Below are positions 15,112 to 19,270 of a stretch of DNA of 64,000 bases, in pieces (position 1 is the stretch's first letter; the number at the start of each line of letters is the position of its first letter). The notes below the pieces were generated by a model. The model did no database searches. It had not been told where the DNA came from and worked only from the letters and a program-made list of their open reading frames with translations. The stretch is taken from the NCBI RefSeq assembly GCF_056712565.1, contig NZ_CM160072.1, one strand, 5' to 3'. Both the position numbers and the translations under genes were made by a program.

Positions 15112-15813
15112 CTACAACTTCAGAATTTCTTTCACAAACGGAATGGTCAGCTTGCGTTGCGCGGTAATCGACGCACGATCCAGCTGATCCAGCGTCATAA
15201 ACAACGTGCGCATTTCTCTGTCGAGCCGCTTCAGCAAGAAACGCCCCACATCTTCCGGCAGTTCAAAACCACGCAAACGCGCGCGTAACTGTAGCGCCTG
15301 CAACTTATCTTCATCAGAAAGTGGCTGCAATTTGTAGATCTGCCCCCAGTCGAGACGCGACGCGAGATCCGGTAATCCCAGATTCAACTGCCGCGGTGGA
15401 CGATCGCCGGTGATCAACAACCGTGTTTTGCCCGATTCCAGAATTCGATTGTAGAGATCGAAAATCGCCATCTCCCACAACTCATCGCCGGCAATACACT
15501 CAATGTTGTCAATACAGACCAGCGACAAATGCTCCATACCGTCGAGCACTTCCGGAACAAACCAGGTGCGTTTATCCAGCGGGACATAGCCCACCGCATC
15601 GCCACGCTGTGACAATTCCGCGCAAGCCGCGTGCAGCAGATGGCTGCGCCCCGCGCCTTCGCGTGCCCAGAGATAGATGTAACCGCTATGTTCCTGACGC
15701 AGCACGTTTTGCAGCGCGGCCAGTAAAGAGGAGTTATCCCCCGGCCAGAAACTTGCAAAGGTTTCGTCGTCAGGAAGATAAAGTGGCAAAGAGAGCTGTG
15801 CCGGTGTGTTCAG
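15112..15813 (-). CDS. hda: DnaA-inactivating protein Hda
   Basis: 233 aa if started at CTG 15813 ([10 protein letters not shown]...), as recalled for K-12 Hda; ORF track gives a 248-aa extension. Confidence 0.8.
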
Positions 15814-15907
15814 AGATACCTCAACCAGGATTTCACAAAATCGCGAGAAGTTTACCACAGAATCCCATGATGTTTGAACCGGGCAGCAACACTGCCCGGT
15901 CGGTACA

Positions 15908-17197
15908 TTATTTGTCTGTTATATCCGCGTCTTCTGCGTCCAGCACCACTTCTTCAGGGCGCAGCATACTAATCAGTTTGAAGATCAAACTTAAGCCGAT
16001 ACCGACGATGGTCGCCAGCGCCATACCTTTCAGCTCCGCCGCGCCAATGTTTACCTTCGCGCCACTGACGCCGATGATCAAAATAACGGAAGTCAGGATC
16101 AGGTTCTGTGCTTTGTTGTAATCCACTTTCGATTCGATCAACACACGAATACCGGAAGCACCGATGACCCCGTAAAGCAGCAGCGAAACGCCGCCCATCA
16201 CCGGCAATGGAATCATCTGGATAGCAGCAGCCAGTTTACCGACGCAGGAAAGCAGGATAGCGAAAATCGCCGCACCGCCGATAACCCAGGTACTGTAAAC
16301 ACGGGTGATCGCCATCACGCCAATGTTTTCTCCGTAAGTGGTGTTTGGTGTGGAACCAAAGAAACCGGAGATCACGGTCGACAAGCCGTTAGCAAACATC
16401 GAACGGTGCAGACCTGGATCGCGCAGCAGATCTTTTTTGACGATATTAGCCGTTACGACCAGGTGCCCTACGTGTTCGGCAATAACCACTAACGCCGCTG
16501 GCAGAATAGTCAGAATGGCAAACCACTCGAAGCGCGGCGTATAGAGGGTCGGCAGCGCAAACCAGTGAGCATTAATAATCGGCGTGGTATCGACAATTCC
16601 CATTGCGAAAGAGAGCGCGTACCCCACCAGCACGCCAATTAAAATCGGGATAATTGCCAGGAAACCACGAAACAGCACGGAACCTAAAACCGTGACCGCC
16701 AGGGTGGTAATAGAGATGATGATGGTTTTGGAGTCTGGCGTTTGCCCTTCAGCCGGGAGTAAACCCGCCATACCGGCAGCTACGCCCGCCAGCTCCAGAC
16801 CGATGACGGCAACGATTGCGCCCATTGCCGCAGGTGGAAACAGCACGTCCAGCCAGCCGGTCCCCGCTTTCTTCACGATAAAAGAAACCAGGCAGAACAG
16901 CACGCCGCACATAATAAAGCCGCCCAGCGCGACTTCATACCCCAACGGCAACAGTAACAATACCGGTGAAATAAAGGCAAAGCTGGAACCAAGATAAGCC
17001 GGAATTTTCCCTTTACAGATGAAGAGATACAGCAGTGTTCCTATACCGTTAAATAACAGTACAGTCGCCGGGTTAATATGAAATAAGACGGGCACCAGGA
17101 CGGTTGCACCAAACATGGCGAACAAATGTTGCAAACTAAGCGGGATTGTCTGTAAAAGTGGCGGTCTTTCACTCACCCCGATAGCACGGCGCGTCAT
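15908..17197 (-). CDS. uraA: Uracil permease UraA
   Basis: 429 aa from ATG 17197 ([16 protein letters not shown]); NCS2 transporter. Confidence 0.9.
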
Positions 17198-17282
17198 AGT
17201 ATTATCCTCTGTATTATGTGTTATAGGCGCTTTACTCAAAAAAAAGCCGACTCTTAAAGTCGGCTTTAATTATTTTTATTCT

Positions 17283-17909
17283 TTATTTCGTACCAAAGAT
17301 TTTGTCACCGGCATCGCCGAGGCCCGGAATAATGTATCCGTGCTCGTTCAGTCCCTGGTCAATCGATGCAGTATACAGTTCGACGTCCGGGTGCGCTTTT
17401 TCCAGCGCAGCGATACCTTCTGGTGCAGCTACCAGCACCAGAACTTTGATGCTGCTGCAGCCCGCTTTTTTCAGCAGGTCGATGGTCGCGATAACGGAAC
17501 CACCGGTTGCCAGCATTGGGTCAACGATCAGCGCCATACGCTCATCGATGTTAGAAACCAGTTTCTGGAAGTACGGTACCGGCTCCAGCGTTTCTTCATT
17601 ACGGTACATACCGACGACACTGATGCGCGCACTCGGAACGTTTTCCAGCACACCGTCCATCATCCCAAGACCCGCACGCAGAATTGGCACAACGGTAATT
17701 TTCTTACCTTTGATCTGGTCGATTTCTACCGGGCCGTTCCAGCCTTCGATAGTGACTTTTTCCGTTTCGAGGTCGGCGGTCGCTTCGTAAGTCAGCAGGC
17801 TACCCACTTCGGAAGCGAGTTCGCGAAAGCGCTTGGTGCTGATATCTTGCTCACGCATCAGTCCCAGCTTGTGTTTGACGAGTGGGTGTTTGACTTCCAC
17901 GATCTTCAT
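17283..17909 (-). CDS. upp: Uracil phosphoribosyltransferase
   Basis: 208 aa from ATG 17909 ([14 protein letters not shown]) with RBS AAGGAG. Confidence 0.95.
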
Positions 17910-18153
17910 ACTCTTTCTCCTTTGAGGGGCAGCCACAAAAAAATCGACGGATTATACCTCCTTTCTTCAAGGCGGCAATATTATTTTCGTTGACTTTAGT
18001 CAAAACGATAACGGTTTTAGATAAAGTTATTTTATATTCAAATGGTTATGAAAGAAGATTATTCCATCCGAAAACGATCCTTTGCCCTGGTACAAGTATT
18101 CTTTCGCCGCGCGCCTGGGGAAAAGACGTGCAAAAAGGTTGTGTAAAGCAGTC

Positions 18154-18169
18154 TCGCAAACGTTTGCTT
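18154..18169. promoter_or_regulatory. Candidate PurR box upstream of purMN
   Basis: TCGCAAACGTTTGCTT, palindromic core GCAAACGTTTGC. Confidence 0.5.
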
Positions 18170-18232
18170 TCCCTGTTAGAATTGCGCCGAATTTTATTTT
18201 TCTACCGCAAGTAACGCGTGGGGACCCAAGCA

Positions 18233-19270
18233 GTGACCGATAAAACCTCTCTTAGCTACAAAGATGCCGGTGTTGATATTGACGCGGGTAATGCTCTGGT
18301 TGGAAGAATCAAAGGCGTAGTGAAGAAAACGCGTCGTCCGGAAGTGATGGGCGGTCTGGGCGGCTTCGGTGCGCTGTGTGCATTGCCGCAAAAATATCGT
18401 GAACCTGTGCTGGTTTCCGGCACTGACGGCGTAGGTACCAAGCTGCGTCTGGCGATGGACTTAAAACGTCACGACACCATTGGTATTGATCTGGTCGCCA
18501 TGTGCGTTAATGACCTGGTGGTGCAAGGTGCGGAACCGCTGTTTTTCCTCGACTATTACGCAACTGGAAAACTGGATGTTAATACCGCTTCAGCGGTGAT
18601 CAGCGGCATCGCGGAAGGTTGTCTGCAATCGGGCTGTTCACTGGTGGGTGGCGAAACGGCAGAAATGCCGGGGATGTATCACGGTGAAGATTACGATGTC
18701 GCTGGTTTCTGCGTTGGCGTGGTAGAAAAATCAGAAATCATTGACGGATCTAAAGTCAGCGACGGCGATGTGCTGATTGCACTCGGCTCCAGCGGCCCGC
18801 ACTCGAATGGCTATTCGCTGGTGCGCAAAATTCTTGAAGTCAGCGGTTGTGATCCGCAAACCACCGAACTTGATGGTAAGCCATTAGCCGATCATCTGCT
18901 GGCACCGACCCGCATTTACGTGAAGTCAGTGCTGGAGTTGATTGAAAAGGTCGATGTGCATGCCATTGCGCACCTGACCGGCGGCGGCTTCTGGGAAAAC
19001 ATTCCGCGCGTATTGCCAGATAATACCCAGGCAGTGATTGATGAATCTTCCTGGCAGTGGCCGGAAGTGTTCAACTGGCTGCAAACGGCAGGTAATGTTG
19101 AGCGCCATGAAATGTATCGCACCTTCAACTGCGGCGTCGGTATGATTATTGCCCTGCCTGCTCCGGAAGTGGACAAAGCTCTCGCCCTGCTCAATGCCAA
19201 CGGTGAAAACGCGTGGAAAATCGGTATCATCAAAACCTCTGATTCCGAACAACGCGTGGTTATCGAATAA
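18233..19270 (+). CDS. purM: Phosphoribosylformylglycinamidine cyclo-ligase (AIR synthetase)
   Basis: 345 aa from GTG 18233 ([17 protein letters not shown]) preceded by GGGGA. Confidence 0.95.

Follow-up and report, generated by a model that had tools for sequence, protein, structure and literature searches.

CUG-initiated genes of Escherichia coli have been described, first hda and then yfjD, and EcoGene 3.0 credits the experimental proof of the hda CTG start to Su'etsugu et al. 2008 (PMC3531124). Naive open reading frame (ORF) finders are also known to make a characteristic error, in which a gene is over-extended to its longest ORF. Here, we compared the starts given by a program-made ORF track with curated starts for nine genes (hda, uraA, upp, purM, ppk, purC, dapA, gcvR, and ypfH) in a 64,000-nucleotide stretch of contig NZ_CM160072.1 from RefSeq assembly GCF_056712565.1, hereafter called the window. 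The real starts are almost certainly the curated ones: a CTG in hda, a GTG in purM, a TTG in gcvR, and a downstream ATG in each of the other six genes (Table 1). The start codons and protein lengths of all nine genes are equal to those in the RefSeq and K-12 records, and the K-12 gene models (b2473, b2476, b2478, b2479, b2496-b2499, and b2501) have the same start codon, relative start position, and length. Hda, GcvR, Upp, and PurC are 100% identical to the K-12 proteins, and YpfH, DapA, UraA, PurM, and PPK differ from them by 1-4 amino acids. The hda locus is the same as the documented case, with its CTG 4 nt past GAGGT, and the over-extended track starts reproduce the known longest-ORF effect; we found no difference in either respect. 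In all respects, the nine-gene result agrees with the curated K-12 models and with the hda CTG start already on record, and it is therefore known.

An initial annotation, made from the sequence of the window, had stated that Hda reaches its 233 amino acids only with a CTG start, that purM starts at GTG, that gcvR likely starts at TTG, and that the other six genes start at downstream ATGs. All of these assignments agree with the curated records, and alignment to the curated K-12 proteins, a check proposed in that annotation, returned no different N-terminus for any of the nine genes. Its coordinates and its list were less complete. The region that it named (15112-18235) does contain hda, uraA, upp, and the start codon of purM, but the five remaining genes are located at 3882-11288 and 20080-22146. 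In addition to the nine genes named, bamC and ypfN are also over-extended in the track.

The track sets each start at the first ATG, GTG, or TTG past the upstream in-frame stop, and CTG is outside this rule. The curated starts were taken from the RefSeq annotation of strain ZJ3920 (NZ_CP020545.1) and from the annotation of K-12 MG1655 (NC_000913.3), both mapped onto the window. Positions 1-28009 of the window are colinear with ZJ3920 at 99.98% identity and match K-12 at ~98%, one deletion aside. Of 5,426 complete E. coli genomes, 5,425 have a match to the named region (3.1 kb), and several phylogroup-B2-type strains share its sequence throughout (100% identity); the match covers the annotated genes hda, uraA, upp, and purM, and an Rfam search of this region found no RNA family. 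Six genes have the same sequence as K-12 between -90 and +30 of the start, and the remaining differences are 1-3 bases located 5' of the Shine-Dalgarno sequence (SD): one upstream substitution in gcvR, three in ypfH, and a T-tract that is 1 nt shorter in upp. For comparison, 80 species-level Enterobacteriaceae loci were retrieved by a scan with the Hda protein and taken with 10-kb flanks; these loci also carry uraA, upp, purM, ppk, gcvR, dapA, bamC, and purC. Since ypfH is beyond the 10-kb flanks, its homologs in six other genera were taken by protein identity instead. SD pairing is given as the predicted free energy (ΔG) of pairing with the 3' end of 16S rRNA (anti-SD).

Table 1 Track starts, curated starts, and associated elements in the window. 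SD, Shine-Dalgarno sequence; ΔG, predicted free energy of pairing with the 16S rRNA 3' end.
Feature	Span (strand)	Curated start	Curated length (amino acids)	Track start	Track length (amino acids)	SD	ΔG, curated vs track (kcal/mol)	Remark
ypfN		ATG 3605		GTG 3581
ypfH	3882..4580 (-)	ATG 4580-4578	232	ATG 4604	240	AAGGAG 4592-4587	-8.7 vs -2.2	N-terminal peptide implied by curated start: MKHDHFVVQSPDKPAQ
purC	7715..8428 (-)	ATG 8428-8426	237	GTG 8437-8435	240	AGGAG 8441-8437	-10.5 vs -0.3
bamC	8641..9675 (-)	ATG 9675-9673	344	TTG 9678-9676		GGGAG 9685-9681		Track start one codon 5' of curated start
dapA	9692..10570 (-)	ATG 10570-10568	292	TTG 10588	298	GAGGA 10581-10577	-8.2 vs -2.7
gcvR	10716..11288 (+)	TTG 10716-10718	190	TTG 10650	212	AAGGAA 10702-10707	-5.7 vs -0.2	N-terminal peptide implied by curated start: (f)MTLSSQHYLVITALGADRPGIVNTITR
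hda	15112..15813 (-)	CTG 15813-15811	233	GTG 15858-15856	248	GAGGT 15818..15822	-7.0 vs -4.2	Same as RefSeq and K-12 b2496
Extended -10-like element TGTGGTAAACT	15849..15859 (-)							Contains the hda track GTG
uraA	15908..17197 (-)	ATG 17197-17195	429	TTG 17239-17237	443	GAGGA 17209-17205	-5.8 vs -3.0
Terminator-like hairpin with T-tract	17233..17267 (-)							Between upp and uraA; uraA track TTG in T-tail
upp	17283..17909 (-)	ATG 17909-17907	208	GTG 17936-17934	217	AAGGAG 17922-17917	-8.7 vs -1.9
Promoter-like site of upp, TTGCCG-16-TATAAT	17978-17951 (-)							With T-tract leader, element span 17930..17978
purM	18233..19270 (+)	GTG 18233-18235	345	GTG 18218	350	GGGGA 18220-18224	-5.5 vs -0.2
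ppk	20080..22146 (+)	ATG 20080-20082	688	GTG 20074-20076	690	GGAG 20065-20068

The number of over-extended starts requires no special explanation. Of the 27 annotated genes in the colinear segment, 11 have a track start upstream of the curated one. Because an upstream scan can end at any of three stop or three start-like codons, the first one met is start-like approximately half of the time; the observed count does not exceed this chance expectation of ~0.5 (binomial p = 0.44). The warning in the initial annotation against taking the track at face value is justified, as a matter of an ordinary longest-ORF side effect and not of a discovery. A mechanical rule of this kind always returns the longest possible frame, errs only by over-extension, and never returns a CTG. 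Ribosomes, on the other hand, start at a start-class codon located a few bases 3' of an SD on the mRNA. The 2-22 extra codons of the track forms are untranslated leader, SD, or promoter or terminator sequence in which the frame happens to contain no stop.

SD pairing separates the two sets of starts. Apart from ppk, the curated starts have ΔG values between -5.5 and -10.5 kcal/mol, with the end of the SD 4-8 nt from the start codon, and their advantage over the track starts is ~3 to 10 kcal/mol (Table 1). In ppk, the advantage is only 0.8 kcal/mol and the GGAG ends 11 nt from the ATG. The initial annotation had credited all six downstream ATGs with good ribosome-binding sites; SDs are indeed present in purC, dapA, uraA, upp, and ypfH, but the statement was too strong for ppk.

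The curated start codons are invariant in the species comparison: the CTG of hda (81/81), the GTG of purM (72/72), the TTG of gcvR (54/54), and the ATGs of uraA (76/76), upp (75/75), ppk (68/68), dapA (57/57), purC (39/39), and ypfH (7/7). The longest-ORF start, on the other hand, is in most cases missing, out of frame, or interrupted by a stop. No in-frame ATG, GTG, or TTG is present upstream in 64 of 76 sequences for uraA, 52 of 68 for ppk, 46 of 81 for hda, 23 of 57 for dapA, 30 of 75 for upp, 17 of 54 for gcvR, 19 of 72 for purM, and 10 of 39 for purC. A stop codon is located one codon 5' of the purM GTG in 16/72 and 4-6 codons upstream of the hda CTG in 28 loci. In the alignments, the SD is conserved just 5' of each curated start, and indels whose lengths are not divisible by three occur further upstream: 1-nt indels shift the upstream GTG of purM out of frame in many species, and the upstream indels of gcvR do not preserve the frame. 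In ypfH, the ATG and AGGAG are retained in all six other genera, and the upstream ATG is found in none of them. The best 120 YpfH homologs, nearly all of which are 230-232 amino acids long, cover at most 96-97% of the 240-residue query, and therefore none of them aligns to the 8-residue extension.

The non-ATG starts were also compared with internal codons of the same amino acids. The CTG of hda is fixed, but Leu7, Leu9, Leu11, and Leu13 are each encoded by 3-6 synonymous codons; the TTG of gcvR is fixed, but Leu9 and Leu14 use 3-5 codons; and the GTG of purM is fixed, but Val14 uses four codons. Synonymous drift would be expected at internal leucine or valine codons and none was seen, which argues that the CTG, TTG, and GTG are not internal codons and that the CTG of hda is itself selected, over and above the leucine for which it would stand.

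Automated gene callers often yield the extended forms. Among close relatives, the Hda proteins predicted in public sets are between 197 and 272 amino acids long, and the 248-residue GTG form of Hda forms a cluster (P0122) of 3510 member sequences. This, together with the uninterrupted reading frame of the extensions in this strain, is what could be said for the view that the true proteins are the longest-ORF forms and that the curated K-12 models are too short. We consider this view highly improbable. The extensions are broken by stops, out of frame, or devoid of a start codon in most related species, and the extended starts do not have an SD. Moreover, several of the extended starts overlap elements with other apparent roles. 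The track GTGs of purC and purM each share one base with the SD of the curated start (AGGAG and GGGGA, respectively), the track TTG of uraA lies in the T-tail of a terminator-like hairpin, and the track GTG of upp is directly 3' of a T-tract. The track GTG of hda is contained in an extended -10-like element, TGTGGTAAACT, in which the Enterobacteriaceae alignment shows conservation of the G-T-G and TAAACT columns, and the track ATG of ypfH is 3 nt past a conserved TAAAAT -10-like hexamer. Several track starts are therefore inside putative promoter or terminator elements and may not be on the mRNA. A simple sigma-70 scan called no promoter for hda or gcvR and gave hit counts no higher than those of shuffled sequence; we took it as a weak hint only, for upp and ypfH. 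The longer forms were rejected as real proteins on the basis of conservation, SD pairing, and the N-terminal peptides described below.

The T-tract of the upp leader (17937-17943, minus strand) has seven T residues here and eight in K-12, and seven or eight across the Enterobacteriaceae. In upp, the tract mediates UTP-sensitive reiterative transcription. Upstream of purM (18155-18185, plus strand), the sequence CGCAAACGTTTGC is followed by the extended -10-like TGTTAGAAT, and the -10 and its flanking bases are conserved in most species. CGCAAACGTTTGC presumably resembles the PurR operator consensus.

Because RefSeq starts are propagated from curated families, we sought evidence independent of annotation. 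A 2026 N-terminomics study of E. coli lists N-terminal formylmethionine (fMet) peptides indicative of translation initiation sites at the curated starts of purC, dapA, upp, and purM (PMC13245402 Table S1). These include MQKQAELYR for purC and, for purM, a peptide from the GTG as well as the Met-removed form TDKTSLSYK.... Each of the four is supported by Ribo-RET, and purC, dapA, and upp are also supported by INRI-seq (PMC13245402). The INRI-seq supplements have no rows for gcvR, hda, uraA, ypfH, or purM. Structural data point in the same direction. UraA in PDB 3qe7_A begins with MTRRAIG, and Hda in PDB 5x06_E has a tag followed by MNTPAQ..., both of which are the curated N-termini. The TTG form of GcvR aligns with the Vibrio cholerae GcvR structure (1u8s_A) from its residue 6 onward, which leaves no room for the 22-residue extension; we found no experimental proof of the gcvR UUG start in the literature. 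What is shown here for the curated starts is thus their match to the curated models, their conservation, and the placement of their SDs. Initiation by ribosomes at the curated codon comes from the literature for five genes (fMet peptides for four, and the CTG proof for hda), and is predicted for gcvR, uraA, ypfH, and ppk.

The same peptides bear on whether the true starts might be internal and further downstream than the curated ones. Other than a TTG at codon 9 of hda in this strain, nothing specific favors such starts. The residues directly 3' of the curated starts are conserved as protein and the fMet peptides begin at residue 1, so we rejected downstream internal starts, which are even less probable than the longest-ORF forms.

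Several observations weigh against the curated starts or reduce the weight of the evidence for them. Since RefSeq starts are propagated, agreement with RefSeq is not independent evidence. The proof of the hda CTG start rests on the citation of the primary work in EcoGene 3.0 (PMC3531124). N-terminal proteomics, the second check proposed in the initial annotation, is available for purC, dapA, upp, and purM, and the one table concerned (PMC13245402 Table S1) has no N-terminal peptide for hda, gcvR, uraA, ypfH, or ppk. The remaining points concern ppk. Its sole SD, GGAG, is separated by 11 nt from the ATG and by 5 nt from the upstream in-frame GTG, which is near-optimal spacing for the latter, and INRI-seq Table S3 ("Alternative TISs", for translation initiation sites) assigns an in vitro peak in four samples to the ppk GTG at -6.

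These features of ppk raise the question of dual initiation, in which an upstream in-frame start is also used in E. coli and gives minor, N-terminally extended proteoforms. The ppk GTG (+2 amino acids) is the most plausible candidate. The TTG adjoining the ATG of bamC could be another: both codons are kept in 41 of 41 species, with SD spacings of 5 nt to the ATG and only 2 nt to the TTG. However, the same INRI-seq Table S3 row for the ppk GTG has no in vivo Ribo-RET peak, and an offset of 6 nt approaches the limit to which footprints can be resolved. The GGAG-to-ATG spacing is kept in all 68 species, but the GTG is present at -2 in 14/68 and missing in 52-54/68; a stop at -3 is found in 51/68, including most of the species that lack the GTG. 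Among the other genes, there is almost no SD at the upstream starts, and for purM, upp, purC, and dapA the curated N-terminus alone is found in the N-terminomics table (PMC13245402). The PPK structure (PDB 1xdo_A) starts with GQEKLY, i.e., at G2. UniProt is said to record protein sequencing of PPK residues 2-17 by Akiyama et al. in 1992. Dual initiation is, in our view, unlikely, though considerably less so than the wholesale alternatives above. The ATG is the conserved start of ppk, and minor use of the GTG may occur in E. coli.

At hda, the comparison adds to the known case. The CTG is invariant in 80 Enterobacteriaceae species loci and is also found in five Enterobacterales genera outside the family. 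GAGGT is invariant in 71 distinct upstream sequences, and Yersinia, Erwinia, Proteus, Dickeya, and Serratia have it as well. The first four of these genera keep both the CTG and GAGGT, and the GTG of their annotated 235-residue models (MLLNTP...) is the tail of the SD GAGGTG. Because this GTG is the last part of GAGGTG, it has no SD of its own, and the annotated 235-residue models probably include two codons too many. In Serratia aquatilis, where that GTG lies in a different frame and a TGA is located at -3, the CTG is the sole possible start. These five genomes suggest a systematic mis-annotation of hda. An inefficient CTG may be selected throughout the Enterobacterales to keep Hda scarce, in which case the 235-residue models of Yersinia, Erwinia, Proteus, Dickeya, and Hafnia would start wrongly; we regard the chances for and against this proposal as evenly balanced. 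The choice of start in hda has practical consequences. The clamp-binding motif of Hda is 6-QLSLPL-11, numbered from the CTG start (PMC5397184), and the track form places 15 extra residues before it. Published work has included constructs based on the old hda GUG start.

The nine-gene result opens no new biological question and serves only as a caution to users of ORF tracks: the track places ~40% of the gene starts in the window too far 5', and it never displays a CTG start. The same start error is widespread in automated annotation.

Other features of the window were noted in the course of mapping. The K-12 genes hyfABCDEFGHIJR-focB (hydrogenase 4, 13.6 kb, between bcp and yfgO) are absent, and a 98-bp spacer occupies 11759-11856, as in ZJ3920. 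Colinearity with both ZJ3920 and K-12 is lost just past yfgI (28010-64000), and a prophage is present where guaA would be expected. The segment 27500-40000 has >80% coverage in only 10 of 5426 E. coli genomes. The prophage encodes a lysis cassette (holins, a GH19 lysin, and DUF2514), an endosialidase tailspike of the K1-capsule type, and BRO-N proteins. It also contains Rfam matches to the Hfq-binding RNA isrK (34097-34173) and the C4 antisense RNA (34192-34278), as well as a tRNA-Arg(TCT) at 52817-52893. Between pdeF and yfgG, RefSeq annotates a hypothetical protein of 50 amino acids (26158-26308, minus strand), which is divergent from yfgG.

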